Positions 1,881 to 46,928 of a stretch of 46,928 bases of DNA are shown piece after piece. The notes under the pieces were generated by a model that made no database searches, was not told the DNA's origin, and was given only the letters and a program-made list of their open reading frames with translations. How positions within the stretch are numbered: the stretch's first letter is position 1; each line of letters begins with the position of its first letter. The DNA is taken from the IMG/VR virus record IMGVR_UViG_3300037760_000053, positions 1-46,928 of that record, one strand, 5' to 3'. This stretch comes from a virus. Its lineage: Duplodnaviria > Caudoviricetes. A program made the translations under genes and the position numbers.

Positions 1881-2222
1881 CTACTTCCCGGCGGTGCGCA
1901 TTCGCGCGATCGCGACGACCAGGCCGACGACCGAGATGGCAACTCCCGCGTAGCGCTCTGCGATGAGGTCGTTGAGGATTTCTGGGTTAGCCTGTATCCA
2001 GGCGCCCGCCGCGATGATAAGGCCGGCCACGCCCATCGTGGTGGACTTCAGGGAGCCCTTGGCTTTGGCGACGAGGAATTTCTTGAGTGCGTCCATGATT
2101 ACTTTCTCCAGGTCTATGGTTGATGGTTTGGGGGCGGCCTTCTTGCGCCGGCCGAAGATACGCTTGCCGATCTCATGCTTCCGCCAGAACTTGGCGCCGA
2201 CAAGCACTAGTTTCAGGTTCAC
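1881..2222 (-). CDS. Putative holin (2 TM); alternative starts GTG 2222 and ATG 2096
   Basis: Two hydrophobic segments and a basic C-terminus, immediately after the endolysin. GGAG SD precedes both starts. Confidence 0.6.
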   Translation of the reverse strand: MNLKLVLVGAKFWRKHEIGKRIFGRRKKAAPKPSTIDLEKVIMDALKKFLVAKAKGSLKSTTMGVAGLIIAAGAWIQANPEILNDLIAERYAGVAISVVGLVVAIARMRTAGK

Positions 2223-2632
2223 GGGACATACTCCATGATCTCGAAATGCGGCATGTCGATGAGCCGCTCGTCGGCCGTCCGTCGATCCTGATCCCAGTCG
2301 CCGCCCCACCGGGTGCGGAGCCCTTGCTCGTGGGCGACCCGCTCGACGTACCCCGCGAGGCGCGCGAACGCGGCCGTGTCCGTCCAATCGATCTTCACGT
2401 CAGGCAAGTAAGGCGCGATGTCGACCGCCAGCGACGGCAGCGCGTTGTGCTTGCTGCGCGGCCACTGGACGGTGCTGCGCCCGGTGCGGTAGGCTTCGTC
2501 CTGCTCGTCTTTCCCGCGATGCCCGCACAGGATGCTGATGTCGACATGCTTGATTACCTCGCGCATGACACGCTGAAGCCGCTCGTCGCAGGTTGACAAC
2601 CGCTGCTCAGAGAGTCGTGAAAACTTTGGCAT
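2219..2632 (-). CDS. Endolysin, M15-family (L-Ala-D-Glu-type) peptidase
   Basis: SKHN...AVD...WGGDW...DMPHFE Zn-ligand pattern. GAGGT SD. Confidence 0.9.
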   Translation of the reverse strand: MPKFSRLSEQRLSTCDERLQRVMREVIKHVDISILCGHRGKDEQDEAYRTGRSTVQWPRSKHNALPSLAVDIAPYLPDVKIDWTDTAAFARLAGYVERVAHEQGLRTRWGGDWDQDRRTADERLIDMPHFEIMEYVP

Positions 2633-5218: not shown

Positions 5219-8200
5219 CTAATCCCGATGCCCAGCGGCGAGCGCCGCGGGGTTCTCCGTGTCGCCCTCCGAGAGCGCCACGACGCCCTCGACCGTCCGC
5301 TGGACCTGCCCAGCGGGGTAGTGGAACAGGATGCCGGCGGTAGCGTTCAGGGCTCTCAGGGCGGCCGCGTCGACCTCCCTCTGCTCGGCCTGCTCGATCA
5401 GCCGGGCGATCTCGTCGAGCCCCCTGAGCCCGGCGGGGCCGCGGTAGGGGAACCCCTCGACCATCCCGCCGAAGTCGCGCGCCCCAATGACGGTCCCCAT
5501 CAGATAGCTGACCTGCGCCTTGGCCATCTTCGCGAGCATCTCGTCATCGTCGTCGCCCCGGCCGAACGCTTCCTTCACGAGCATGCTCAGCACGGCCGGG
5601 ATGCTGAACAGGAGCAGGTAGTCGACGGCCAGGCGGCCGACGTCGGCCGGCTTCTTTTCAGTCTTGAGGATCGACTCGGCCGCCAGGTTGTACGTCGTGT
5701 TGAAGAACGAGTAGAAGTTCGTCCAGAGTTTCATCATGGGTCCGCCCCGTTGGATGCGCGCGAGGTCTTTGATCTGGCCGCCACCCTGCGAATCGAGGAC
5801 AGCCTGATCGGCGAGTGCGATCGCGCGTGCCTCGTCGGTCTCATGGGCCATCGCCTTCTCGTAGGCGCCCAGCCATGTCGGCATGTCGGCCGCCACCTGC
5901 GCCTGCTGGATAAGCCAGAAGAACGACGCCTGCACGCGATCTAACTTGCGCATGCCGCGCACCTCGTTCTGCACCTCGTTGATCTCGCGTTGCATCGTCT
6001 TCGCCCGTAGCCGCATGAAGCTCGACTTCTGCCGGACCCACGCAACGGAGTTCTCCATCCCGCGGGCGCTCCCGAGCCACCGGCCGAGCCCCCTGGCGAC
6101 CCACTCAGGGCCAACGCGCACGATCGACTGTGTGAGCCCGAGCGGCTGCAGCGCGGCCGTCGACATGTTCCACCCGAGGCCGGCGATGGTGGCGCCCGTG
6201 CGGATGTGGTTCAGGCCGGCCTCAAACGAGTCTTGCGCGGGGATGTCTCCGCGGGCCACGTCCTTGAGCGCCTCGCTCATCTGCTTCAGGTACAGGCGTC
6301 CGTGGTGCTCGCGGATGACGCCGTCGAGCGAGCTTAACAGCCTGGTCGCGTCGATCAGATACTCGTGGAAGCTGAGATCGTGGATCACCTGGTTGACGTG
6401 CTCGAACAGCACGCCGAAGTCTTTGCGCATGGGGCGCTTGACCGACTCGACGCGCGCCTTCGTGTGGCCGCGCCGGGTGGTCGCACGCGTATAGAGTCCT
6501 TGCATGGACTGCCGCAAGCTCTCGGCCAGCGTGTCGGCCTCCGCGCGGCTCGAGCGGCGCGTGTCGTACTTGATTGGGTAGTAGCCGCCGCGGTACTCGC
6601 CGAACTTCGTCTGCACGGGGGTCGCCTCGACCTTCTCGGGTGTCAGCCCGGTGACGCGCTTTTCCTTTGCGCTGATCTCTGGCCAGAAGCTATCGACGTG
6701 ATCCCAGACGCTCTGCACGAAATCCCAGTCGTCTTTCGTGAGCGTATCGAGGATCGCGCCAACCTGCGGCTGGCTCCAGCGGTCGCCCTCCATGACGCGC
6801 AGCCGGTTTGTCTCGTTCCCCTGGTTGAGGGCAATCACCAGCCGCCCCTCGCGCGACAGCGAGCGGCCGATCTCTGGGATGTATAGCTTTCGTCTTAGCT
6901 TGCTACCTTTCACAATCGGGCGGAACAAGGCGGTCAATTGCTTGGTGGCTTGCTCACGGGCGACGGCCTCACGGTCGCCCGCCGCATTCAACGGTCGGAT
7001 GAACAGCTCCCATAGGGCGCCGCCATCCTTGAAGCCGTCCATCTGGCGCACGATGCTCGCGAACTTGCGGTGCATCGCGAAGAACTCTTTGACGCCCTCT
7101 TTCAGCCGTGCACCGAACGCATTGTGCTCCAGCTCGTCGGGGATCGTCTTGCGGGCGTTCTCACGGACGGAAGTCTCGGCCGTCTCGACCGCCTCGGCGA
7201 ACTCGCGGTCCTTGACGGCCGTCAGCAATTTCTTCTTGAGCCGACCGAGGTGCTCGATGTTCTTGACCGTGTCGATGAGCCCGCGGAACTCTTCGACGGT
7301 CAGCTCTTTGTACGGCTGCCGGCGCGCTTCCGCGAGGAGCGTCTCGTCGATCGACGGCTCGAAGCCCAGCTCGCGTTGCGACTCGACCCACTCGAGCAAG
7401 CTCTTTCGTTTGGCGGCCGCGCGGGCGGTCGTGCCCTTGCGCAAGTCGAACCGCTCGAGCAGCGAGTCGATCTGCTCCAGGTATTCGCCGTCGAGGTTCT
7501 TGCGGGTGCCCTCGTTCTCGAACTTCTTCAAGAAGCGGAGCCCGCGCTCGATCTCGTTGAGCGCGTCGAACGCAGCGCGGGCCGCCAGTGTGTTGATGAG
7601 CTGGTTGCGCTTCTCAGTGGCAGCCTCAAGCAAGTTACCGGCGACCAGCTCGCGGTCGGCCGCCTTGGCGGCGCGCGTCTCGGCGGCCGTGAACTGGGCC
7701 GGCCGCACGTCGCGGATGCGCCGCCGGGCGATCGTGATGGCCGCGAAATCCTTGGCGGCCTTCAGCATCACGTTGAAGGTGCCGCCGGCCGGCGTGCGCC
7801 CGCGCGCGTTCAGCATGCGGTTGAGCGCGCGGATCTCGGTCGCCACGAAGCGGGCGCGCGCCTCGTTGTGGACGGCCTCGTCGGCGGCCCGCTCGAGGGC
7901 CGCGAAGTCAGTCAGGTCGCCGTACCGCTCGAGCATCTTGCGGTCGGTGACCGCCTCGACGACGGACTCCCGCGGCTCGACCGCGAGGAGCGCGCGCACC
8001 AGGTGATCGCCAGACGTGAAGCCGAACAGCTGGGCGATCGTATCAGGGTGCTGGGTGCCTGTGCCCGACGCGAGCTGCGGCCGCAAGGCCGACCAGTCGA
8101 GCGCGCCAAGTTCGCCCTCGGGGTACATCTCGTTGAGCGCGTCGACCGACAACTTGTGGCCGGCGGTCGCCTTGATGATCTCGCCGTCCTGCTCCATCTC

Positions 8201-11200
8201 GCCGCGGGCCAGCCAGCGGATCACGCGGTAGATCGGCTCGGCGGCGACCTCCTCGGCGGCCTCCGCGCGGAGCGACTCGCGCTTCGACAGCGCGTCCTTC
8301 TGGAGCGCGCCGAGCACCCTGCTCTTGGCGTTCGACAGCCAGCGCATGTCGCGCAAGCTGCGACGCTGCAGCGTGTCGGTCGCGTCGGTCGTCGCGGCGG
8401 CCGTCGCTTCTTGGTACGTCTGCCACTCGTCTTCGGTCATGCCGGCCTGCTCGGCCGACTCGAACAACGGGGCGAACGCGCGGGCCGCCTCGGTGGCCGC
8501 GATAGCCTGGTCGGACGCGACCAACCGGCCGAACACGCCGCGCACCTCGTCGGTCAGCTCGACGTTTAAATGCGTTAGCGTCTTGTAGACGTTAATGAGC
8601 CACGCGCGGAATCGGCTGAAAATGGGTGACAATTCGGAGGTCGGCGCGTTGCCCTCGAAAAGATACGCCTCGAAGCCGCGGGCGAACTGCTCGTGGTGCG
8701 GACGGCGCTGCTCGAGCGTCATGCTCTGCCACGTTTGTGGTGAGTCGACACCGAACCACGCGAGGATCTTGCTGAAGTCGTCGGCGATCGCGGGCGGCGC
8801 GTCCGGCTGCGCCACGATGTCGGCGTACACCTCGAGGAAGAAGTGGCCAGACTCGTGGAGGAACGTCGACAGGTCGGCGTTGCGGAGGAGAGCGATCGTG
8901 GCGCCGCCTTCGCCGTCGAGCTGGATCTGGCCGCGGGGCGCCGACGTTTGCCCCTGCGCCAGCTCGGTGAGGCCGGTCGCCGCAGCATCACCGATAAGGT
9001 CTTGGTTAGCGCCCGCTAATCCTTCGGGCGAAGGTTCGCGCTGCTGCTCGAACGTGGCGGCCTCCGCTTGTGGCTCGCTGCCTTCGAGTAGACCATCGGC
9101 CATGACCCACTCAGGGAGGAGGGCAGCCTTCTGCTCGGCGTACACCGTCTCTTGCTGATTCGCACGGTTCTGCTCGCCGAACGGCCCGAAGTTCACCCAG
9201 CTGTTTTGCCCGCGCGTCTCGGTCGTCATCGCGCGCGCAGCAAGCGGCGAGTACATGCGCACGTGTGAATGCCACGCGTTCTCCTCGCCGTTCGGCCCAA
9301 AACCGTTGCCTTCCTTCGCGTGCCCAAAGATGTCGTGCACAATGCGGAACACGTCGTTCGCGACGAGCTGATGATCGCCGATGCGTTCGTCGGTGGGGCG
9401 CAGCAGCGGGTGGCCGGCGCCCTCGGTCTCTGTGCCGAAACCTTGCTCGGTCGGGAACGTCCACAGGTGCCCACGGCGAATATCTTCGAACACCTGCCGC
9501 GGGCCTTCGGGATACGGATTCTGCCCCGGTGGGATGAACTCGATCGTCAGCCCGAGTTCCTTGACCACCTGATACTGCGCGAGCGTTTCGTCGATCAGCG
9601 CGTCGTACGCGACCTGCACCTCGAAATCGTCGGGGTTGTGTTGCGCTTCCTCGTACGCCTGCGCGATGCGGGCGCCCCGCTCGGGGCTCGCGCGCACGTA
9701 CCGTGTGTGTGACGGAAGATCGGGGTTGTTGACGAGAACTTCGTCGAGGTACCGTTGGGCGGCCTCCTGGATGGCCGCGAGCGGGCCGAGCGATGACTCA
9801 GGAAGTCCGCCTAGTGGGGAGCCCGGCTGGTGCTCGGGCGTTCGCCGAGCCGCTTCCGGCTGATCGTCTCTTCGCTCGCGGGTTGCGCGTTCTGATTCGA
9901 CTCGCTGCCGTCGGAGCGCGTCGAGCCGTCGGGCCGAGCGAAGGAGACCAGGCGAGACTGTCGCCGCTCCTGCACCTCGACGAGCAGGTCTTCCGCCGAA
10001 TTCCAGTTCGATTGCTTCGATCGCTTCGCCATAACCTGCACCTTCGAGAATTCCCCTAATTGTAGCATCTTGCGCGAACATCGTTGAGAAGTCGGGCGCG
10101 CGCGCGACGTGCTCATCGGTGATGGCGCCCTCCCGCACGAGCTGCTCCACGGAGCGCGTTTCGCCGGCAGCGTCGGCCAACTCTACGGCTGTCTTCGCCC
10201 AGCTCCAGACCGTCTCCTGGACCTCCGAGGGGGTCCACGTTTCGCCGGTCTCTTTCGTGAGTCGGGCGGCCACCCGTCGGATCTTCGCGTTCATCGCGGC
10301 GTAGCCGGGGCGCTTGCCGGGGCCGCGCGTCTTCGTCAGCTGACCGGCGAACAACGTCTGATCGATCAGCGCAAAATTTGCCATCCAAGTGTCGTTCGTG
10401 ACTTCGTTCACGTCGCCCGACAGGTTGCGCATGAACGAGTTGACCTTCGGCCCGCTCAACGTGATCTCGCTGGGCAGCTCGGCCGACAGCGCGCGCACCG
10501 TGTTGTTCTTCCACGCGCCGAGCGCTTGACCGGGGCGGCCGTCGTACACTGACTGGTCGAGAATATCGAGGATCGTGTCGGCGTCCGCCGGACGGCCGGC
10601 GCGGTCCCAGTTGGTCCACGCACGCACCGCGTGCGCCAGGTTCGTGTCGACCGGCACCTGGGGTGACAGGGCGGCCATCAGCGCGGCGAACCGCGGAGCG
10701 TCGGCATCTCCGAAAACTTGCCGGAGTGTCCGAACGGCAGCCGCGTACCACCCGCGCTTCGCCTCGCCCGCGAGGGCGGCCGCCATGAAGTCGGCGTCCT
10801 TCGGCAAGTCTTTGAACACCTGCACCAACTTAGCGGCGGTGTCTCGCCGCATGGCCGCCCGCTCGTCTTCCGCAAGGTGCGGCTTGATCGCGCCGAAACC
10901 TTGCGGCTCCTGCTCAGGTGCCAGCTGGAAGAGCACGCCCGCGGCGCGCTCGACGAGCTGTTCCGCTTCAGACTCGTCGACACCCTCGACGGGGATCTGC
11001 GTGAAGATGCGCGCTTGTCCTCGTAGGTTGCCCTCAGCCTCGGGCGTCGTGTAGCCGACGAAGCCCGCGTCGCGCACGCGCCGCTCGAACTCGCTGAAGT
11101 CGACCTGCGTGTTCGTCGGTATGCGGTTGCCCTGCTCGTCGAGGCGGAAGCTCGTCGCGACGCGCGATTCGTCGAGCAGGCCGGCAGGGTCCGCGCTCGC

Positions 11201-13699
11201 GTCGTACAGCTGGTCGGTCGGCACGTCGACCACGAACTCGTTCGGGCCGACGCCGCTCTCGCGCACGAAGCCCTCGTCGGGGTACAGCGCGATCGACTGC
11301 ACCGGATCGCGGGCCCGCTCGGCGCCCGGCATGCCAGTGCCCATGAAGGTGGGGTCCAGCACGTCGGTGACAACGTTCCCGAAGTGGCGAAAGCGGGTGG
11401 TGCCCGGCGCGGGCGCGGGAACGTTAGCATCCGCTAATCTGGCGGACGCAGCGGGGCGCGGCGGTTCAATGCGCGTGACGACGGCTTCACCTAGCGGGGC
11501 GGACACACCAAGCGCGGCAAGGTCTTCGCCTTGACGCTCAAAGGCATCGGCTTGCTCTAAAATGCGCTGTACCTCGACAGGGTCAGCGTACTCGATCGTC
11601 CACCCTTTGCGGCGCAACCCTTCGTACGCGCGCAACTGCTTCGCGGACACGGCGCGATCCGAAACTAGGCGCTTACCCTGCGTCTGCGCCACTTCGTATG
11701 CTTGCTGAATAAGTTGTTGCCCGATACCCTCACCGCGTTGCCCGCGGTGAACTTCGCTAAGCTTAATTTGCAGCGTGTCACCAACAACATCGGCCTCCAT
11801 CCGCGCGACTTCGCCGCCACGAATCACGAACTGCTCGCCGTCGGCGCTCTCGTCAACCTCGAACTGTTCCGGTGCCAACTGCTCCAGCCCCTCGGCGAGC
11901 GGCTCCGCGGTGACACGCAACGGGTAGCGCTTGTACATCTCCTCGGGCGTAACGCCGAGCTTCTGGGCCGTCACGATGTAGAAGTCGCGCATGAACGCGG
12001 CGTACGCGTTGTTCACGTCACCCGTGAAGCGGTTCGCGGCGGTCAGCTGCTCGCGCAGTATCGTCTCGACGCTCGTGGCGCTCTCTTGAAATGCGTCGTT
12101 CTCCTCCTGGGCGGCCATCACCTTCTCAGCTTCCGCGCGGAACTGATCGGCGGCCCCCTGCTGGAACTCTTGCGCCTCGGCCGCGCTCATCGCCTCGGGC
12201 GACGCCCGAAGGTGAGGCAGTAGAGCTTGCGCGTAATCTTCACCAGCAATACGAGCAGCAAACTCACCAACAGGAATCCTAAGATCACCACCGGTATTGC
12301 TAGCCTCAGCGTACTGCGCAGCAACAGACTTGGAGACCTCCATAGGATCGATTCCAGCTTGCTCAAGCACGTCGCCGAACGCTCTGGCATCGACGTAGAC
12401 ATCGCTCATCTCCTCTTCTTGCTCTGCAGCTTGTTGTACGAATTGTTCGAAGGTGTCGGGCGCCCGCCCGCGCAACTTCGACGCGGCGGCCGCCTGCGCC
12501 AGTTGGGCGAGCCGCTCGGCGTTAGCGTTTGCTAATTCTGCGCGCGCGTCTTGGCCCGAGAAGTAGCGGGCGGTCGCGTCGACCGCCTGCACGGTGGTCG
12601 TCTGCGCGCCGACGGCCACCAGCGTGGAAATGAGCGTCTGCGCGGCCGCGCTCGGCCGCTCGCTGAGGTAATCGGCGAACGGCCGCTCGGGATTCAGGGT
12701 GGCCCACTGATTAAGATCCTGTAGAATCGTGGCGGCCTGCTCCTGCGGGATCTCGGTGGCGACCTGCCCCAGCAGGGTGCGCATAAAGCCAGTTTGTTTC
12801 TCGAGGTCACCCAGTAACCGACCGACCGGGATCGTCTCGGTGGCATACTCGACGGCCGCCTGGCTCAACGCGAACGTGGCCGCCTGGGCGACCGGCACGT
12901 CTTCGTCGCGCGCCGTACCATACTCTTGACCAAACACGAGCCCTGACATGCCAGTCAACGTAAGCTGTGGGTTGCGCGTGAGCGCACCGCCGATCAGCAG
13001 CGGGATGTTCTGACCGAACGACTCGAAGCCGCCGTACACGCTCCGCTCGATGAACCCGGCGTCGCTCATGTCGCCGCGAATTTGCTCGGCCTGCTTCGCA
13101 GCGGCATGCCGCAAGTCGCGGTACAGCTCGGCGGCTCGCCCGGCCGGGTTGCGCACCTTGACTGGAGAGATTAGCTGGAGCGCGCGCGTGAGCGGCTCAA
13201 ACAGTAGGGCGCTTGTCTCGCTGGCCGCCTCACCAACACCATATACCCCTTCGGCAATCCTGGGGCCTAGCGCCGACGCGACCGACCGGCCGGCGCGCGC
13301 GCCGACACCGGTGGCACCACCCATGCTCGGCCGGCGGAACAGCATCTCGATCGCCTGCGCGTTATCGAGGTCGTCGTGGGCCAGCTTCGCGAACTCGGGG
13401 CGTGCCATGTGATCGCGGAGCGCGGGCAGCTCGCTGAGCATCTTGTCGTAGCGCGACAACGACGCCTGTCGCTGGACCGTGTCGAGGTTGCGCTCGACGA
13501 CCGGCGCCGGGATGTTCGTCTCGGTCGATAACTTGCGGGCCTTCGCGAATTGGTCAGGGTTTGACTGGAGCGCCTCGAAGATGCTCGAGCGCAGCATCGT
13601 GTTCCGCTGGCGCGCCAAGTCTTGCGCTGCCAGGTCGTACCTGTTCGGCTCGGGCGTCTCCGCGGAAAGCTGCGCCAGAACGTCGTCGTACTTGCTCAC
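5219..13699 (-). CDS. Giant internal virion/ejection protein, large polyvalent protein (2826 aa)
   Basis: Lies between smaller ejection genes and the tail fibre. Contains GNAT motif QRGEGIG, an ART-like segment, LSPQ/GPKVNSF/VTNDTW segment, VHDIFGH segment and STFLHESGH zincin. Confidence 0.85.
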   Translation of the reverse strand: MSKYDDVLAQLSAETPEPNRYDLAAQDLARQRNTMLRSSIFEALQSNPDQFAKARKLSTETNIPAPVVERNLDTVQRQASLSRYDKMLSELPALRDHMARPEFAKLAHDDLDNAQAIEMLFRRPSMGGATGVGARAGRSVASALGPRIAEGVYGVGEAASETSALLFEPLTRALQLISPVKVRNPAGRAAELYRDLRHAAAKQAEQIRGDMSDAGFIERSVYGGFESFGQNIPLLIGGALTRNPQLTLTGMSGLVFGQEYGTARDEDVPVAQAATFALSQAAVEYATETIPVGRLLGDLEKQTGFMRTLLGQVATEIPQEQAATILQDLNQWATLNPERPFADYLSERPSAAAQTLISTLVAVGAQTTTVQAVDATARYFSGQDARAELANANAERLAQLAQAAAASKLRGRAPDTFEQFVQQAAEQEEEMSDVYVDARAFGDVLEQAGIDPMEVSKSVAAQYAEASNTGGDLRIPVGEFAARIAGEDYAQALLPHLRASPEAMSAAEAQEFQQGAADQFRAEAEKVMAAQEENDAFQESATSVETILREQLTAANRFTGDVNNAYAAFMRDFYIVTAQKLGVTPEEMYKRYPLRVTAEPLAEGLEQLAPEQFEVDESADGEQFVIRGGEVARMEADVVGDTLQIKLSEVHRGQRGEGIGQQLIQQAYEVAQTQGKRLVSDRAVSAKQLRAYEGLRRKGWTIEYADPVEVQRILEQADAFERQGEDLAALGVSAPLGEAVVTRIEPPRPAASARLADANVPAPAPGTTRFRHFGNVVTDVLDPTFMGTGMPGAERARDPVQSIALYPDEGFVRESGVGPNEFVVDVPTDQLYDASADPAGLLDESRVATSFRLDEQGNRIPTNTQVDFSEFERRVRDAGFVGYTTPEAEGNLRGQARIFTQIPVEGVDESEAEQLVERAAGVLFQLAPEQEPQGFGAIKPHLAEDERAAMRRDTAAKLVQVFKDLPKDADFMAAALAGEAKRGWYAAAVRTLRQVFGDADAPRFAALMAALSPQVPVDTNLAHAVRAWTNWDRAGRPADADTILDILDQSVYDGRPGQALGAWKNNTVRALSAELPSEITLSGPKVNSFMRNLSGDVNEVTNDTWMANFALIDQTLFAGQLTKTRGPGKRPGYAAMNAKIRRVAARLTKETGETWTPSEVQETVWSWAKTAVELADAAGETRSVEQLVREGAITDEHVARAPDFSTMFAQDATIRGILEGAGYGEAIEAIELEFGGRPARRGAGAATVSPGLLRSARRLDALRRQRVESERATRERRDDQPEAARRTPEHQPGSPLGGLPESSLGPLAAIQEAAQRYLDEVLVNNPDLPSHTRYVRASPERGARIAQAYEEAQHNPDDFEVQVAYDALIDETLAQYQVVKELGLTIEFIPPGQNPYPEGPRQVFEDIRRGHLWTFPTEQGFGTETEGAGHPLLRPTDERIGDHQLVANDVFRIVHDIFGHAKEGNGFGPNGEENAWHSHVRMYSPLAARAMTTETRGQNSWVNFGPFGEQNRANQQETVYAEQKAALLPEWVMADGLLEGSEPQAEAATFEQQREPSPEGLAGANQDLIGDAAATGLTELAQGQTSAPRGQIQLDGEGGATIALLRNADLSTFLHESGHFFLEVYADIVAQPDAPPAIADDFSKILAWFGVDSPQTWQSMTLEQRRPHHEQFARGFEAYLFEGNAPTSELSPIFSRFRAWLINVYKTLTHLNVELTDEVRGVFGRLVASDQAIAATEAARAFAPLFESAEQAGMTEDEWQTYQEATAAATTDATDTLQRRSLRDMRWLSNAKSRVLGALQKDALSKRESLRAEAAEEVAAEPIYRVIRWLARGEMEQDGEIIKATAGHKLSVDALNEMYPEGELGALDWSALRPQLASGTGTQHPDTIAQLFGFTSGDHLVRALLAVEPRESVVEAVTDRKMLERYGDLTDFAALERAADEAVHNEARARFVATEIRALNRMLNARGRTPAGGTFNVMLKAAKDFAAITIARRRIRDVRPAQFTAAETRAAKAADRELVAGNLLEAATEKRNQLINTLAARAAFDALNEIERGLRFLKKFENEGTRKNLDGEYLEQIDSLLERFDLRKGTTARAAAKRKSLLEWVESQRELGFEPSIDETLLAEARRQPYKELTVEEFRGLIDTVKNIEHLGRLKKKLLTAVKDREFAEAVETAETSVRENARKTIPDELEHNAFGARLKEGVKEFFAMHRKFASIVRQMDGFKDGGALWELFIRPLNAAGDREAVAREQATKQLTALFRPIVKGSKLRRKLYIPEIGRSLSREGRLVIALNQGNETNRLRVMEGDRWSQPQVGAILDTLTKDDWDFVQSVWDHVDSFWPEISAKEKRVTGLTPEKVEATPVQTKFGEYRGGYYPIKYDTRRSSRAEADTLAESLRQSMQGLYTRATTRRGHTKARVESVKRPMRKDFGVLFEHVNQVIHDLSFHEYLIDATRLLSSLDGVIREHHGRLYLKQMSEALKDVARGDIPAQDSFEAGLNHIRTGATIAGLGWNMSTAALQPLGLTQSIVRVGPEWVARGLGRWLGSARGMENSVAWVRQKSSFMRLRAKTMQREINEVQNEVRGMRKLDRVQASFFWLIQQAQVAADMPTWLGAYEKAMAHETDEARAIALADQAVLDSQGGGQIKDLARIQRGGPMMKLWTNFYSFFNTTYNLAAESILKTEKKPADVGRLAVDYLLLFSIPAVLSMLVKEAFGRGDDDDEMLAKMAKAQVSYLMGTVIGARDFGGMVEGFPYRGPAGLRGLDEIARLIEQAEQREVDAAALRALNATAGILFHYPAGQVQRTVEGVVALSEGDTENPAALAAGHRD
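9811..10032 (-). CDS. Putative nested out-of-frame ORF (73 aa) inside the giant gene
   Basis: Extended -10 TGCTACAAT at 10067-10059 and AAGGTGCAGGTT before ATG. The host frame here is a low-complexity Arg/Gly linker with atypical A/T-ending codons. Confidence 0.45.
   Translation of the reverse strand: MAKRSKQSNWNSAEDLLVEVQERRQSRLVSFARPDGSTRSDGSESNQNAQPASEETISRKRLGERPSTSRAPH
12187..12402 (-). CDS. Putative nested out-of-frame membrane protein (71 aa) inside the giant gene
   Basis: GAGGAG SD 7 nt before ATG. TM segment LAIPVVILGFLLVSLLLVLLV plus basic tail. The host frame switches to T-ending codons over this stretch. Confidence 0.55.
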   Translation of the reverse strand: MSTSMPERSATCLSKLESILWRSPSLLLRSTLRLAIPVVILGFLLVSLLLVLLVKITRKLYCLTFGRRPRR

Positions 13700-15300
13700 T
13701 GCAAGTTCCCGAGTCGGTATAGCTCCACGATCGCAGCGTCGGTCGCCGGTTGTCCGATTTTCTCGAGGGCCGCCTCGATCTGCTGTCGGTCGGCCGCGGG
13801 CACCTCGGAGACGTCGAACTCGAACCGCGCGACATCGTCTGGGGCAACCTCGAACAGCCGGCGGTCTGAATCGATGAGCCCGAAGAATCCGCCACCGATG
13901 ACCTCGCCCTGGATGAGCATGCGGTCGATGACTTTCTGCCGATCGTCGAACGTAAGCTCGCGCCCAAGGACAGTCTGCTCACGATCGAGCGCCTGCTGCG
14001 CGCGCGACTCGAACTGCCCGCGTTCCTCAGGTTCCAGTTCGAGCATGCGGGCGGCCGCCCCGAGCTGCTGCGATAGCGTCGCGACATCCTTGTGCTGCTC
14101 GGGTGTCTGCAACTTCTCCTGCAGGTTGAGTAACTCGCGCCGCTGCGTCGGATGCAAGTCGGGGTAGCTCTGACGAATGTCACGCGCGACGAACGCTTCG
14201 GGCTGCGCGAACGCCTCCTGCCGCAAGTCGGTGTAAACTTCCCAGTCGGTCTGCAGCGCGTCGGCCCGCTCGGCCTGCCTCAGCGCGTGCAGCGTGCGGC
14301 CGTCGAGCTGCTCCAGTAGAGGAGTAGGTATGCTGTCGACACTGTTTGTCCGCCCAAAGATGTCCCACGCGGCGTTAGCCACGGTGCGCGCACCTTGCTC
14401 ATCGGTGGCGCGCTGTTCGCGGAACCGCTTCTCGACGCGCGCCACGACCTCGTCGCGCTCCTCGCCTTCGAATTGCTCGCGGGCGCGCTTGAGCGTCTCG
14501 GCTTCCGTTTCGCCACGGGTGAGCAGGGCGTCCGTCTCTCGCTGCGCCTTCGCGCGCAGGCCACCGACGCGCACGAGCTTCTCAAGCTCATCTTGATCGG
14601 CGCCCGCGATCTCCGACTTGTTCGCCGCGAAATACTCACGGGCGCGCTCGGGGTCTGCGTCGACCATTGGTTGCAACACTTGCTTGTGCAGGTTCGTGAG
14701 GTGCAGCGACTCCTCAGCCTCACGGCGCTCGGGAGTCCAACCGTTGAACTCGGCCTGTACCTGAATACGCTTCAGCACGTCGCTTTTAGCGCCCGCGATT
14801 GCGTCAGGGTTATCGTGCGAGGCGGCCGCCACGTTGATCGAATTGACGATCGACGAGCGGGCCGACTCCTCGAGCGACACGCGCCGCTCTTGCGCTTCGT
14901 ACTTCGCAGCGCTCTCCATACTCTGCTGCCGCAGGGTTGACACCTGCGGCTCGAACAGCGCGCGTTGTGCGTCGTTCTCTAGCCCTTCTGTGTGGCGCTT
15001 GCCGTTCTCCTCCCACCACTGTCGAACGTCACCCGTTACGCCCCACGCGTTCTGCCCGCGGCGCTCGCGCAAGCTCGTCTCAAACGCGAGGTACTCTTCT
15101 TTGAGGGCCGCCTCTGCGCGGAACAACCTGTCGGCATTCTGGCGCTCCTGCTCGCGCGCGGCGATCGCACCGAGGTCGGCGCCGGCCCGCTGGAGTGACG
15201 CGCCAAATTGTGGCAAGTCCGACTGCGCCGCGGCGACACGCACGTTAGGCAGCGCCGTCAAACGCTCTTGCGGACCCGTGTAGACCGGCACCCTAGGCAC
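13696..15300 (-). CDS. Internal virion (ejection) protein
   Basis: 534-aa helical protein with MPRVPVY start, in the ejection module. Confidence 0.7.
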   Translation of the reverse strand: MPRVPVYTGPQERLTALPNVRVAAAQSDLPQFGASLQRAGADLGAIAAREQERQNADRLFRAEAALKEEYLAFETSLRERRGQNAWGVTGDVRQWWEENGKRHTEGLENDAQRALFEPQVSTLRQQSMESAAKYEAQERRVSLEESARSSIVNSINVAAASHDNPDAIAGAKSDVLKRIQVQAEFNGWTPERREAEESLHLTNLHKQVLQPMVDADPERAREYFAANKSEIAGADQDELEKLVRVGGLRAKAQRETDALLTRGETEAETLKRAREQFEGEERDEVVARVEKRFREQRATDEQGARTVANAAWDIFGRTNSVDSIPTPLLEQLDGRTLHALRQAERADALQTDWEVYTDLRQEAFAQPEAFVARDIRQSYPDLHPTQRRELLNLQEKLQTPEQHKDVATLSQQLGAAARMLELEPEERGQFESRAQQALDREQTVLGRELTFDDRQKVIDRMLIQGEVIGGGFFGLIDSDRRLFEVAPDDVARFEFDVSEVPAADRQQIEAALEKIGQPATDAAIVELYRLGNLQ

Positions 15301-24081: not shown

Positions 24082-24333
24082 TCATTGCCCCAGTAGTGTC
24101 TTCGCACCTGTACTCGGGGCCGACAGCATCGAGCCCGACGCGCTGCCGTAGGCGCCACGGGGTGACAATCCTTCACGTGCGCGCCGCCGGAGCATGCTCA
24201 CGTCGGGCGCCTTGGGCGCCTGCGGGGCCTTGGGCGCCTCGGGGGTGCTTTTGTTCGCCGCGATGCCCGCGCTGGCGGCGGCCGTCGAGCCGCCGACGAT
24301 CGCCATGATAGCGGGAATTTCTAGGCCAGACAT
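24082..24333 (-). CDS. Small virion assembly protein
   Basis: 83 aa, Pro/Ala-rich, ends KTLLGQ. GAGGAG SD. Confidence 0.65.
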   Translation of the reverse strand: MSGLEIPAIMAIVGGSTAAASAGIAANKSTPEAPKAPQAPKAPDVSMLRRRAREGLSPRGAYGSASGSMLSAPSTGAKTLLGQ

Positions 24334-24335
24334 AG

Positions 24336-24503
24336 TTAGCTCCTCAACTTTTTGATCGACACCGCGATCGCGAACACGCCCGCGATGACCGCGATGATGG
24401 CCGCCGCGAACTGCACCACAGGTATCCACGTCACGACGAACGCGGTGACGGCCGACGCGCCGCTCACGCCCGCGCTGCCGATGACCTGCATCTCGGGTGT
24501 CAT
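24336..24503 (-). CDS. Small membrane protein (55 aa, holin-like)
   Basis: MTPEMQVIG...WIPVVQFAAAIIAVIAGVFAIAVSIKKLRS. ATGA overlap with the upstream stop. Confidence 0.55.
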   Translation of the reverse strand: MTPEMQVIGSAGVSGASAVTAFVVTWIPVVQFAAAIIAVIAGVFAIAVSIKKLRS

Positions 24504-25225
24504 GAGAACTGTATCGAAACATGATCGATAACCGGATCAGCGACACCGTCGCCGCCGGCCATCAGTATCGACAGATTGACATCACGGCGCGCGCCAAACG
24601 CGATCTCTGTCCAGGGTGTGGCGTGCATGTCCGCGACGGCCATCGATACTACAGCGGCACCCAGAGACGTGTAGTCACCGGGGGTATTCGACGACTCGCC
24701 TACTTTGTAGGAGGCATACAGACGTGGATCGTTCTCGCTGGCCGACGCTGTCCTGACCTTAGCCACGATGCGATAGTGTGTAAACGGCGCCAGGTCGGCG
24801 CGCACCTCGTGGCGATTCGCGCTAGCCAGGAGGCTTTCAACCTCGCTCATGTTGGTTATCGTAAGGGCCGACACAGAGTACGCGCTGACCACCACGTTCA
24901 ACTTTGTCTCGCGCTCGCTTTTTCCAGGTGCCACCAGTGTCACGTCGATGTCGCCCGCGAGTGACTCGCTAGTTTCAACGAGCAAGAAACGGTAGCGTTG
25001 CTTGGACCCGCTCTCGTTTTTGAGCGTGCCAGTCGTGCTGATACTCCCGCCGGTGCCCACCAGCGATTCGATTGTGTCCCACGTTAGGCCGCCGGTGGAT
25101 GAGCTTTGCAGTAGCAGCGTCGCATTATCCAGGTCGCTCGACGCTGCGCTATAGGCGAACACTTCGCCTGGCTTCAGCAGCAGAGCAGAACTAGGGCCGA
25201 CGGTCGACAGATTTTGCATGATCAT
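24500..25225 (-). CDS. Hypothetical beta-rich protein, possibly structural
   Basis: 241 aa from MIMQNLS, with ATGA overlaps at both ends. Confidence 0.6.
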   Translation of the reverse strand: MIMQNLSTVGPSSALLLKPGEVFAYSAASSDLDNATLLLQSSSTGGLTWDTIESLVGTGGSISTTGTLKNESGSKQRYRFLLVETSESLAGDIDVTLVAPGKSERETKLNVVVSAYSVSALTITNMSEVESLLASANRHEVRADLAPFTHYRIVAKVRTASASENDPRLYASYKVGESSNTPGDYTSLGAAVVSMAVADMHATPWTEIAFGARRDVNLSILMAGGDGVADPVIDHVSIQFS

Positions 25226-37238: not shown

Positions 37239-37880
37239 ATGGGCACGGAAATACAAAAACGAGTCAGAGAGGCGCAGCTGCCGCTGCAGTACAGTGAAGC
37301 GATCCGCGCGCTAGAGAAATGTCAAACGATCGACGAAAGCAAGTATTGGTCTGATAGGTCGGACGCGCTCGCTGCGTGGGCGAAGATCTACAAAGACGAC
37401 CAGGTAGCAGAGGAAGCTCGCCGGTTGAAGATTCACGCGTACAAGCGCATGGGCGAGCTTGCAGCTCAGTTGAGGCCGGGAAGGGGCCCTGGCCACAGCC
37501 CAGGTGCGCAAGCACTGCTGCAAGAGTACGGGCTGAAGGAAGCGCAAGCGCACTCCGCCTTGACGCTGCATCGCGCGCCGGAGAAAGAGCTGAATGAGTT
37601 CATCACAAAGACCCGCAAGTCCGCGAGCAGCGCGATGTCGTACAGGCCGTTTAAAGGCAGAGGGAGGCTGCCCGTGAGGGTAAGCGCCGCGTGGGAAAAT
37701 CTATTTGGCAATTCAGGTGGTGGTGCGCGACTGGACAGGCTTCTATCTTTCATACGCAAACATTCTGCACGTGCGGTTGCCGCCGACCTCACCACTAGCG
37801 AAGTCAAGAAAGCTCGCGAAGTAATGCTCGAGGTCATTGAATGGCTCGACGAGTTCGAGCAAGCGCTGCCGAAAACCTAA
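37239..37880 (+). CDS. Hypothetical helical protein
   Basis: 213 aa, GAGGAGG SD, lower GC than neighbours. Confidence 0.7.
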   Translation: MGTEIQKRVREAQLPLQYSEAIRALEKCQTIDESKYWSDRSDALAAWAKIYKDDQVAEEARRLKIHAYKRMGELAAQLRPGRGPGHSPGAQALLQEYGLKEAQAHSALTLHRAPEKELNEFITKTRKSASSAMSYRPFKGRGRLPVRVSAAWENLFGNSGGGARLDRLLSFIRKHSARAVAADLTTSEVKKAREVMLEVIEWLDEFEQALPKT

Positions 37881-38977
37881 TGAGACTCTGGCTAGACACG
37901 GAAACCTACTCCCCGGTCCCGCTTAACCACGGGACCGGGGCTTACTCCGTGTCGCCCGAGGCGGAGGTCATGCTGGTGACGTACGCGCTCGACGACGCGC
38001 CGGCCCAGTGTTGGGACCGCACGACCGATAACACGTTCCCTCGCGACCTAGCTTCCTCGCTTGATGATTCTGAGATTGAGATCTGGTGTCACAATAGTTT
38101 CTTCGACCGCACGATGTTGAACAACGCTACCGAGCTACCTTTGTTTTTCGATCTATCGATCCATCGATTCCGCTGCACCATGGTCCAGGCTTTTGAGCAT
38201 GGGTTACCTGGCGCCCTCGGCAAACTCGGCGCGATCCTCGGGCTACCTGAGGAGACGCAGAAGAGAGAAGGCCGCGATTTGATCCATCTATTTTGCAAAC
38301 CTCGACCGAAGAACTCGAAGCTTCGACGCGCGACCCGGCATACACATCCCGCCGAGTGGCAGGACTTCAAGGAATACGCGATCCGCGACACTGAGGCGCT
38401 GCGAGAAATTGGCAAGCGATTACCGAGCTGGAATTACCCCGACAACCAAGATGAGCTAGAACTTTGGTTCCTCGATCAAGAGATCAACGACCGCGGCGTA
38501 GCGTTCGACCTCGAGTTAGCGCACGCCGCGGTGCGCGCTACACAACGCGAGAAGAAGAGGCTCGCCGAGGAAACCAAAGAGCAGACCGACGATCACGTGC
38601 AGGCGGCCACGCAGCGCGACAAGCTGCTCGCGTTCCTCCTGATGGAGTATGGCGTCAACCTGCCCGACATGCGGGCGGCCACCCTCGAGCGGCGCATCGA
38701 AGATCCCGAGTTGCCCGAGGCGCTCAAGGAACTGCTGCGCGTGCGGCTCGAGTCGAGCCAAACGTCACAGAGCAAATACAAGAAGGCGCTCAACGCCGTG
38801 TCGCCCGACGGGCGGATACGCGGAATGATGCAGTGGTGCGGCGCGCAGCGCACCGGCCGGAACGCCGGGCGGATCTTCAACCCACTGAACCTGCCCCGGC
38901 CGAAGCTGAAGCAGCACGTCATCGAAGAGGGCATCGCCGCGCTCAAGCTGGGCGTTGAGGATCTGATATGCGCGTGA
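37880..38977 (+). CDS. DNA polymerase A, N-terminal part (3'-5' exonuclease + thumb region)
   Basis: ExoI LDTETYS, ExoII HNSFFDR, ExoIII YAIRD, INDRG, GAQRTGR..GR...NLPRP. Confidence 0.9.
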   Translation: MRLWLDTETYSPVPLNHGTGAYSVSPEAEVMLVTYALDDAPAQCWDRTTDNTFPRDLASSLDDSEIEIWCHNSFFDRTMLNNATELPLFFDLSIHRFRCTMVQAFEHGLPGALGKLGAILGLPEETQKREGRDLIHLFCKPRPKNSKLRRATRHTHPAEWQDFKEYAIRDTEALREIGKRLPSWNYPDNQDELELWFLDQEINDRGVAFDLELAHAAVRATQREKKRLAEETKEQTDDHVQAATQRDKLLAFLLMEYGVNLPDMRAATLERRIEDPELPEALKELLRVRLESSQTSQSKYKKALNAVSPDGRIRGMMQWCGAQRTGRNAGRIFNPLNLPRPKLKQHVIEEGIAALKLGVEDLICA

Positions 38978-39219
38978 TGCTTCTGCTGGCCCAGCTTGCG
39001 CTCGCGCCGATCGACGAGGTTGTCGTGTCGGTGCCGGGCAGACCGATCGTGTGGGCCATCGGGTTGTCGTGCGACGCGAAGCCGCTGGGCGTCTACCTCA
39101 TTCGTAGCGACGGCGTGCCCCGGTGGGTGCCCGTCGAGTCGGCCGACTCGGGTGACACGAGCACGGTCAAACGATTGGCGGCCGCTGGCCAGCTCAGCGC
39201 GAGGGACGTATGTCGCTAG
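38968..39219 (+). CDS. Small exported protein inserted between the polA halves
   Basis: GAGG SD, signal-peptide-like N-terminus, two Cys. Confidence 0.6.
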   Translation: MRVMLLLAQLALAPIDEVVVSVPGRPIVWAIGLSCDAKPLGVYLIRSDGVPRWVPVESADSGDTSTVKRLAAAGQLSARDVCR

Positions 39220-40205
39220 CGCCGACAGTCATGGAGCTTTGCTCGAACGCGCTGCGCGGGTTGATCGTCGCCTCACCCGGCAGGAAGCTCGTCGTGAGCG
39301 ACCTGTCGAACATCGAGGGCCGCGTGCTCCCGTGGATGGCCGGCGAAGAGTGGAAGCTGCAGGCGTTCCGCGACTTCGACGTGGGCGTCGGCCCCGACAT
39401 GTACAAGCTCGCGTACTCGCGCCCGTTCGGCGTACAGCCCGACGAGGTGACGAGCTTCCAACGACAGATGGGCAAAGGCATGGAGCTGTCGATGGGCTAC
39501 GGCGGCGGCGTGGGCGCGTTCATCAACGTGTCGGCCGCCTACAAGCTCGACCTCGACGCGATGACCGAGGCTGCCTGGAGCTTGCTGCCGCGAGAAGTGA
39601 TGGGCCAGGCGCACGGGATGTGGGACTGGGCCACCAAGAAGAAACGCACGCTCGGTCTACGCAAAGAAGTGTACGTCGTGTGCGACGCGCTCAAACAGAT
39701 GTGGCGCTCGGCGCACCCGAAGACGGTCGCGCTGTGGGACAACGCCGAGGCTGCCGTCCGCCACGTGATTCTGCACGGCGGCGTGCGGAAGGTTGGCCCC
39801 TGCAAGGTCACGCGCACCGGCAACTGGCTGCGCGTGCTGCTGCCGTCCGGCCGCGAGCTGTGCTACCCGAGTCCGCGGGTCGACGAGAACGGCACCATCT
39901 CGTACATGGGAATGAACCAGTACACGAAGAAGTGGTGCCGGATCAATACGTACGGCGGGAAGGTCGTCGAGAACTGGGACCAGGGGATCGCGCGCGACGT
40001 GCTGACCGCCGCCGAGCGGCCCGCCGAGGCGGCCGGCTATCAAATCGTCCTGACAGTCTACGACGAGCTAGTCACCGAGACACCCGACGAAGAACGGTAC
40101 AGCGCCGAGGAACTGAGCGCGATTCTCGCGACGAACCAAGATTGGAACGCCGGGTTGCCGCTCGCGGCCGGCGGGTTCGAAGGGTACAGATACAGGAAGG
40201 ACTGA
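39210..40205 (+). CDS. DNA polymerase A, C-terminal catalytic part
   Basis: Motif A SDLSNIEGRV, motif B RQMGKGMELSMGYG, motif C TVYDEL. GAGGG SD. Confidence 0.9.
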   Translation: MSLAPTVMELCSNALRGLIVASPGRKLVVSDLSNIEGRVLPWMAGEEWKLQAFRDFDVGVGPDMYKLAYSRPFGVQPDEVTSFQRQMGKGMELSMGYGGGVGAFINVSAAYKLDLDAMTEAAWSLLPREVMGQAHGMWDWATKKKRTLGLRKEVYVVCDALKQMWRSAHPKTVALWDNAEAAVRHVILHGGVRKVGPCKVTRTGNWLRVLLPSGRELCYPSPRVDENGTISYMGMNQYTKKWCRINTYGGKVVENWDQGIARDVLTAAERPAEAAGYQIVLTVYDELVTETPDEERYSAEELSAILATNQDWNAGLPLAAGGFEGYRYRKD

Positions 40206-46730: not shown

Positions 46731-46928
46731 TGAGCGGCACAAGGTGTGCTACGTTGTAAGCAATTGCTAACGTTCAAGGTGCTGTTTTGCCAAGTTGTCG
46801 AGGGGAGGAATAGCACATGATTTTCGAAGCGGCCCTAATCAGCACGCTGTGCCTAGGGATGGCCTTCGCCTGCGCGCGCGGTGCCCTACGAGCTTCCGGC
46901 AACCGCCGGGATGGGCTCTTCGCGTTCG
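46731..46928. repeat. Terminal direct repeat / circular overlap, right copy
   Basis: Copy of 1-198 with one mismatch. Confidence 0.95.

Follow-up and report, generated by a model that had tools for sequence, protein, structure and literature searches.

A candidate membrane-protein gene overprinted in the +1 frame of a giant podophage gene

In the late operon of the tailed phage lambda, the lipoprotein gene Rz1 is nested in the +1 frame of Rz, the gene of its partner spanin. Here we describe ORF1, a nested open reading frame (ORF) of 71 aa with an ATG start, on the minus strand at 12187..12402 of the virus record IMGVR_UViG_3300037760_000053 (Duplodnaviria; Caudoviricetes), which was analysed over its whole length of 46,928 nt and is called the window below. 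ORF1 occupies the +1 frame of a giant gene at 13699..5219. Three further systems resemble it. Gene E of phiX174 was made by a shift of T from third codon positions (T3) of the host frame to second positions (T2) of the new one (PMC8227390). Of 33 functional single-gene lysis proteins (Sgls) of leviviruses, 21 are encoded within rep, in its +1 frame (PMC7693330). The disruptin gp28 of phage phiKT is a 56-aa amphipathic peptide (10.1101/515445). We propose that ORF1 arose recently by overprinting and that its predicted inner-membrane product would be made late and would likely serve as a lysis accessory, a statement to which we assign, as a whole, a probability of about 0.35. Its first part stands far more firmly: to judge from the sequence, ORF1 is very probably a real gene, and likely a recent overprinting on an older host frame.

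Start, codon bias and predicted helix of ORF1

The initial annotation described a 71-aa +1 ORF headed by GAGGAG-7nt-ATG; the ORF is present exactly so, on the minus strand, which had been left unstated. It lies wholly within the giant gene, in another frame, over host codons 433-504. The Shine-Dalgarno (SD) region, GAAGAGGAG, spans 12403..12418 (minus), with GAGGAG at 12415..12410 followed by a gap of 7 nt and the ATG. Its duplex of -10.7 kcal/mol is the strongest among the 20 +1 ATGs of the giant gene and equals the best of 14 main-gene starts tested. Two host residues at this site, E429 (for G) and M431 (for V), are rare in the family; such family-rare residues make up 8 of 77 under the SD and ORF1 and 4 of 104 in the flanks.

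Over much of ORF1 the host codons end in T, in a gene whose third positions are 83% G or C (GC3) and whose mean T3 is 9%. By a change-point fit, the patch covers host codons 445-497 (12209..12367, minus), inside ORF1, with T3 at 29/53 versus 6% in the flanks; the patch puts T at position 2 of the ORF1 codons. The bias reported at the outset, from what are host codons 471-486, is real and peaks at 21 of 30 codons, with one codon ending in A, against at most 11 of 30 elsewhere in the giant gene, but its extent is about 160 nt rather than about 200 nt. At four-fold degenerate sites T occupies 17 of 22 positions in the patch versus 155 of 1586 gene-wide, and A occupies one of the 22.

The claim of a transmembrane helix also held up, as a prediction. 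ORF1 residues 36-54 (codons at 12241..12297, minus) reach a 19-residue hydropathy of 3.18, the top value listed in a six-frame scan of ORFs of at least 30 aa. When the host protein was kept fixed and its codons were redrawn from the giant gene's own usage, none of 20,000 synonymous recodings attained that value (maximum 1.65). The open +1 frame is unsurprising by itself, being retained in 64% of recodings (P = 0.64), and the Arg/Lys tail no longer counts as support, its six R/K residues comparing with 5.1 expected (P = 0.39, chance level). An AlphaFold model built from three sequences has helices at residues 10-22 and 24-66 with a mean pLDDT of 70 and a block pLDDT of 83-95 across residues 31-60; the predicted product comprises an amphipathic helix, one transmembrane helix and a short tail. 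The best ESM Atlas value for ORF1, 0.75, is uninformative.

Relatives with and without ORF1

The host region has 198 homologues. At the DNA level the set comprised 43 distinct loci besides the window and record G001, duplicates of these two being dropped; removal of L111 and L065 as weak, non-homologous matches left 41. None of these more distant loci (29-53% identity) has the T bias, and in none is the +1 frame hydrophobic (hydropathy at most 0.73). Locus L088 in record G001 (64% host identity), the closest relative with DNA, carries a 74-aa counterpart at L088:2592-2816 with the same stop, the T bias (T3 0.49 vs 0.11) and its own GAGGAG-7nt-ATG, offset three host codons upstream relative to the window. 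The SD of this counterpart (-16.5) is the strongest among 17 +1 ATGs, and its hydropathy of 2.85 was reached in none of 20,000 recodings. It also has a 26-nt stretch identical to the window. The third copy, the protein P0121, is close to that of G001: the two differ at four of the first 24 residues and at none of the last 50 (a post hoc comparison of one pair), and each difference fits a single host third-position change, three of them host-silent. The 74-aa counterparts have net charges of +12 and +13.

Host codons for the same residue end in T in both the window and G001 at 13 of 47 positions inside ORF1 versus 15 of 848 outside; where the window codon has T, G001 also has T in 13/20 cases inside versus 15/91 outside. 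Shared third positions with A or T (A/T3) number 19 at ORF1 versus a null of 1.5 (maximum 6 in 1000). By both measures the host synonymous sites behave as if constrained by a nested product. Over about 1600 aligned codons shared A/T3 peaks twice, at ORF1 and at host codons 1223-1296; the second peak is another nested +1 ORF, ORF2. At the protein level ORF1 and its G001 counterpart are 44% identical, with 29 identities versus a null of 24 ± 3.5 (two sequences only). What is conserved in ORF1 is its start, stop and hydrophobicity rather than its sequence.

A quick maximum-likelihood tree of 47 rows groups the window, L088 and P0002 in one clade (SH-aLRT 97), to which P0003 is sister (99); the 15 DNA rows that lack ORF1 branch outside the clade of the first three. 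The host motif EEVTDV of P0002 could encode the SD-ATG. The records of BPP-1 and Jess A annotate nothing nested, and their DNA is without ORF1. A scan for close relatives with the window's own 180-aa region gave no matches; a capsid-protein scan yielded 79 loci, 13 of which reach the region and none of which has ORF1; exact T-rich DNA patterns hit G001 only among viral contigs, plus three non-homologous chance matches, and matched nothing in plasmids. The patterns used for metagenomes and genomes would miss G001 itself, so close carriers may be overlooked.

The host frame is the older of the two, with its 198 homologues, ORF1 in 0/41 distant loci and a single carrier clade. A model of the host domain under ORF1 predicts a fold with two strands and four helices, at a block pLDDT of 90-94 across model residues 31-100, which argues that the host frame is ancestral and that ORF1 is the recent addition. 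A fold search with this model returned generic helices only, with a best Z of 5.6 on residues 104-145. Stops in homologues, named at first as an observation that would speak against a gene, do occur in the distant homologues but not in the close one, a pattern that fits recent birth rather than an artefact. The proposal of a real hidden gene born by overprinting is well supported: G001 shares the ORF, its stop, the T bias and a strong SD-ATG, the host frame is ancestral and widespread, and ORF1 is absent from all 41 distant loci.

A plausible route of birth can be read from the host residues. The conserved host Asp-Val would offer a ready +1 ATG and the conserved Met-Ser (504-505) a ready +1 TGA; a +1 stop already stands at the ORF1 stop site in 25 of 42 loci, a count that takes in one G001 duplicate and the spurious L111. 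New Glu-Glu codons would then have supplied the SD, at the cost of family-rare host residues, and a wobble shift to T would have turned a Ser/Pro/Arg-rich shadow frame into one rich in Leu, Val and Ile, with the host fold retained. By analogy, this appears to be the phiX174 D/E mechanism, operating against a GC3 of 83%. ORF1 probably represents a datable overprinting birth in a tailed double-stranded DNA phage, with 41 relatives 'before' and two lineages 'after', in which start, stop, SD and codon changes are all traceable on a predicted folded domain.

Two alternatives would do without a separately initiated protein. A T-rich constraint of whatever kind, if it acts at wobble positions alone, makes the +1 frame hydrophobic, and the patch might be a DNA or RNA signal (a binding site, pause or antisense promoter) or have been acquired by recombination with a phage of lower GC, with frame, SD and hydrophobicity as by-products; chance readily leaves such a frame open (P 0.64 and 0.19), and the +1 sequence score does not exceed its null. 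We give this idea little credence. The patch has T without A at its four-fold sites, unlike low-GC patches, and falls within the ORF in both genomes; in each of them the ORF begins with the strongest +1 SD-ATG of the giant gene, at different positions; the host protein under ORF1 groups with GC-rich relatives in the tree; and a scan for sigma-70 promoters gave no match in 11500-14000, nor is there a terminator match near the ORF1 region. Less probable still is a programmed frameshift into the +1 frame, which would make a truncated, membrane-anchored giant protein of about 500 aa. An internal SD can stimulate +1 shifting, as in prfB, and the +1 frame of G001 is open for 53 codons further upstream. 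The window, however, has a +1 stop two codons before the ATG, the SD-ATG spacing is typical of initiation in both genomes, and inspection of the codon alignment by eye revealed no shift-prone motif common to the two.

Genome setting and possible functions

The window, with a GC content of 63%, matches Bordetella phage BPP-1 in gene order and is a BPP-1-type podophage: terminase, portal, capsid, tail, internal virion protein, a 534-aa protein (matching PHROGs annotated 'endolysin'), the 2826-aa giant protein, tail spike and M15 endolysin. The phage is temperate, as its integrase, excisionase and helix-turn-helix (HTH) regulator genes indicate. The host gene of ORF1 (5219..13699, minus) encodes an LPD22 large polyvalent protein (phrog_9880) with GNAT and DUF7178 modules, a homologue of BPP-1 Bbp10 whose place in the gene order points to an ejection protein; its one strongly hydrophobic segment is at residues 2690-2708. 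ORF1 lies in the late operon, presumably on the same late mRNA as the giant gene.

ORF1 would be translated from this late mRNA and its product inserted in the inner membrane through the amphipathic and transmembrane helices. There it would tune or complete lysis alongside the holin candidates and the endolysin, perhaps as a holin modulator, as an inhibitor of cell-wall synthesis of the E/Sgl type, or as an outer-membrane helper. We rank a lysis accessory first because of the precedent of phiX174 E and the Sgls, the late position, and the lack of a lipobox ORF on the window's late strand in a simple pattern scan. Exclusion ranks close behind it, and the chaperone, frameshift and non-coding readings rank lower. 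A lytic ORF1 would be a new candidate antibacterial peptide.

Several observations weigh against this proposal. An endolysin and two holin candidates with weak matches are already present in the phage, and ORF1 lies about 10 kb from the endolysin. BPP-1 is without ORF1, and its lysis cassette showed no lipobox gene either, so ORF1 is no obligatory spanin substitute. The basic charge of ORF1 (net +10) is what this frame yields anyway, at 23% R+K, and comparison with Pfam, PHROGs and NCBIfam gave no match better than E 0.095. Carriers amount to just two independent DNA lineages plus the protein P0121 near G001. The comparison of synonymous sites proposed in the initial annotation is divided: the shared T3 and A/T3 excess stands, but total third-position identity at ORF1 is not raised (28/47 vs 495/848). 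The +1 BLOSUM score of the window against G001 is 85 versus a null of 65 ± 23 (P = 0.19), and the start of the G001 ORF lies outside weakly folded mRNA. In the leviviral survey, 178 of 293 candidates bearing a transmembrane domain (TMD) had no effect in E. coli (PMC7693330).

A possible, if doubtful, alternative is that ORF1 encodes an inner-membrane exclusion or immunity protein, one that stops the ejection proteins of superinfecting sister phages from assembling their DNA conduit or bars the ejection protein newly made in the same cell from the membrane; nesting would keep it inherited together with its target. All gene-level evidence for ORF1 applies equally here, the phage is temperate, the giant protein offers a strongly hydrophobic segment, and ORF2 tracks one module of the giant gene, which suggests cognate partners. 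An exclusion function of this kind would be a new handle on podophage DNA-conduit assembly. The zero count of sigma-70 matches leaves no sign of prophage expression like that of SieA, however, and since no promoter of its own was seen, ORF1 would have to act in the lytic phase. Moreover, the likely operator upstream would silence ORF1 in a lysogen, the site may have been chosen for its ready-made start and stop rather than for coupling to a target, and ORF1 is without similarity to any family.

That operator is the palindrome TTAGC-N4-GCTAA at 12522..12535, some 120 nt upstream of ORF1. The palindrome is real and lies where the initial annotation placed it; as support for ORF1 it falls away. 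It is one of 21 copies in the window (18 exact and three with one mismatch, versus 0.45 expected), and G001 has one exact and three one-mismatch copies, the exact one inside the giant gene, about 140 nt downstream of the ORF1 counterpart. No fixed link between operator and ORF1 is apparent, and we rejected one as unsupported. Copies in the window include those at 1851, 5209, 9006, 11424, 12522, 15794, 21130, 31473, 32433 and 43837; the repeated genome end contains two of the one-mismatch copies (27 and 46757). In the early region several follow TTGACA-like hexamers, suggesting that the palindrome is likely a repressor operator, and others stand at gene junctions. The three copies inside the giant gene share one phase and use rare TTA codons; the palindromes may act as roadblock operators.

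The M15 endolysin gene is at 2632..2219 (minus; the context entry spans 1881..2632), followed by a hydrophobic holin candidate at about 2120..1881 (minus; DUF7940, E 0.0027, and phrog_1356 holin, E 0.098, both weak). A 524-aa gene (phrog_1745, 244-1818, minus) lies downstream, adjoined by the operator copy at 1851. The other holin candidate is a 55-aa hydrophobic stand-alone gene at 24336..24503 (minus), kept in G001 and matching TIGR01598 holin at E 0.0052, below the cut-off. It lies upstream of the portal region and is easily mis-annotated as the 5' part of a frame at 24082-24546; a second T3 peak there is a framing artefact, the true gene being the stand-alone ORF.

Elsewhere in the window, family A DNA polymerase matches are divided between ORFs at 37841-38977 and 39210-40205 (plus), with an 83-aa ORF separating them. 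A repeat of the first 30 bases at 46731 makes it likely that the record covers a complete genome whose ends overlap. Sequencing run X2 is a near-identical strain with patchy divergence at low depth: it differs from the window at 21 of 563 nt over 9027-9589 and at 1 of 488 nt over 11876-12363, where the depth is 3.5 and the sequence is too close to inform on ORF1. A look through the sequencing runs listed none of RNA.

Other nested frames and comparison with known systems

ORF2 (9811..10032, minus) encodes a soluble 73-aa product and begins at the end of the DUF7178 domain. Its counterpart in G001, L114:10615-10836, has the same start and stop; the two share 23 A/T3 positions versus 1.7 and are identical at 39 of 73 residues versus a null of 24.9 ± 3.5. 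All ten DUF7178 loci fetched (including L117-L126; the ten take in G001 itself and two near-duplicates) have an open +1 frame of at least 57 codons at the domain end, with an A/T3 peak. The Gly-Tyr ATG that opens ORF2 is also the start of six counterparts; two others begin one codon further on and one begins before it, and the remaining one has ACG in place of this ATG. The other eight aligned sequences are merely 13-24% identical to ORF2, so that kinship there rests on position and a weak motif. A protein search with ORF2 gave no match, and the ESM Atlas nothing usable. DUF7178 itself (9980-10792, minus, in the window) has the invariant motifs SPQ, LSGPKV and EVTND, which we take to recall HhH-GPD DNA glycosylases; its profile had no matches among solved structures. 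The giant protein of G001 also has a SAM-lyase module (L114 residues 1561-1644), of which the window has none.

Scanned by a single procedure, 44 giant-gene frames (57,900 codons) yielded 19 +1 ORFs that are SD-led and have an A/T3 excess, and 216 other genes (101,847 codons) yielded none. The scan excluded frames whose A/T3 exceeded 0.30, and the giant frames included unaligned mosaic modules; nine loci had been picked for DUF7178, the window and G001 account for five of the 19 ORFs, and at least one looks false. The last is a 41-aa +1 ORF at 11790..11665, rejected as absent from G001. Among the scanned nested ORFs the only hydrophobic ones are ORF1 and its G001 copy. A second nested +1 family, at host codon 627 of L094 and 1155 of L120, shares the motif EEALGYWxTHQxRILA, both members lying just upstream of a module that matches window residues 1300-1520. 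More SD-led +1 ORFs with A/T3 peaks stand at module junctions, at L121 codon 1618, L122 563, L123 409, L108 1051 and L062 654. The host frame over several of these reads like a real gene shifted in frame, which suggests captured genes read through as linkers. Giant ejection genes probably conceal small genes that annotation misses.

The 19 nested ORFs in giant genes, against none elsewhere, speak for an assembly helper: ORF1, as one of a set of small helper genes nested in polyvalent genes and co-translated from the same mRNA region as the giant protein, could tether or chaperone that protein at the membrane or process its loading into procapsids. We regard this as improbable. All 41 distant homologues make the same host domain without ORF1, and ORF1 differs from the other nested ORFs, which are soluble (hydropathy at most 0.92) and mostly sit where modules meet. 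A bolder view, unlikely although less so than the helper, is that giant polyvalent ejection genes serve as nurseries for nested +1 genes, with ORF1 caught at its birth as a membrane immunity protein that arose de novo on top of a folded domain in the ejection protein it blocks, and with ORF2 as cognate guard of the injected DUF7178 module. The machine that injects DNA would then be inherited together with its lock, as one gene.

The host gene belongs with the large polyvalent LPD22 proteins described in PMC5512222, alongside BPP-1 Bbp10; the words 'overlap', 'linker' and 'transmembrane' are absent from the main text of that report. A literature search, with subscription journals mostly outside its coverage, found no publication on genes nested in ejection or polyvalent genes. 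SieA of P22 (PMC10461980) resembles ORF1 as an inner-membrane protein, in our case a candidate, that is genetically tied to ejection genes; SieA, however, is stand-alone and prophage-expressed, whereas ORF1 has no promoter match and no sequence match. With phiKT gp28, ORF1 shares a length below 80 aa, a cationic, helical character and a phage in which no spanin lipoprotein was detected, in the case of ORF1 by the simple lipobox pattern. At 71 aa and +10 it falls within the disruptin cut-off (<80 aa, net charge of at least +4; 10.1101/515445). In contrast to gp28, ORF1 is nested, has a full-length uncharged transmembrane stretch, and carries a charge not beyond chance.

Like lambda Rz1, ORF1 is a nested +1 gene for a (predicted) envelope protein in a tailed-phage late operon. 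Rz1 is a lipoprotein encoded in a spanin gene, whereas ORF1 has no lipobox by simple pattern scan and its host is a virion-protein gene of the LPD22 type; we therefore rejected it as an o-spanin. ORF1 also resembles phiX174 E within D (PMC8227390): each is a fully nested +1 gene with a Leu-rich transmembrane helix, predicted in our case, over an ancestral host frame. D, however, was already T3-rich (39%), whereas here T3 would have had to rise from 9% against the high GC3; E is the sole lysis gene of a single-stranded DNA phage, whereas the ORF1 phage is double-stranded with an endolysin and holin candidates; and no family match joins the two. Leviviral Sgls (PMC7693330) are likewise short, SD-led, TMD-bearing +1 ORFs, young and lineage-restricted, with weak sequence conservation while start, stop and TMD are kept. 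ORF1 is such a short embedded ORF with an SD and a predicted TMD. Unlike the ORF1 phage, those single-stranded RNA phages have no endolysin, and most Sgls lie on divergent parts of Rep, whereas ORF1 lies on a conserved, predicted folded domain. As a single-gene lysis protein ORF1 was rejected, the M15 endolysin (2632..2219) and two holin candidates being present. ORF1 thus falls outside the Sgls and the o-spanins as classes, and works like an overprinted transmembrane gene of the E/Sgl type.

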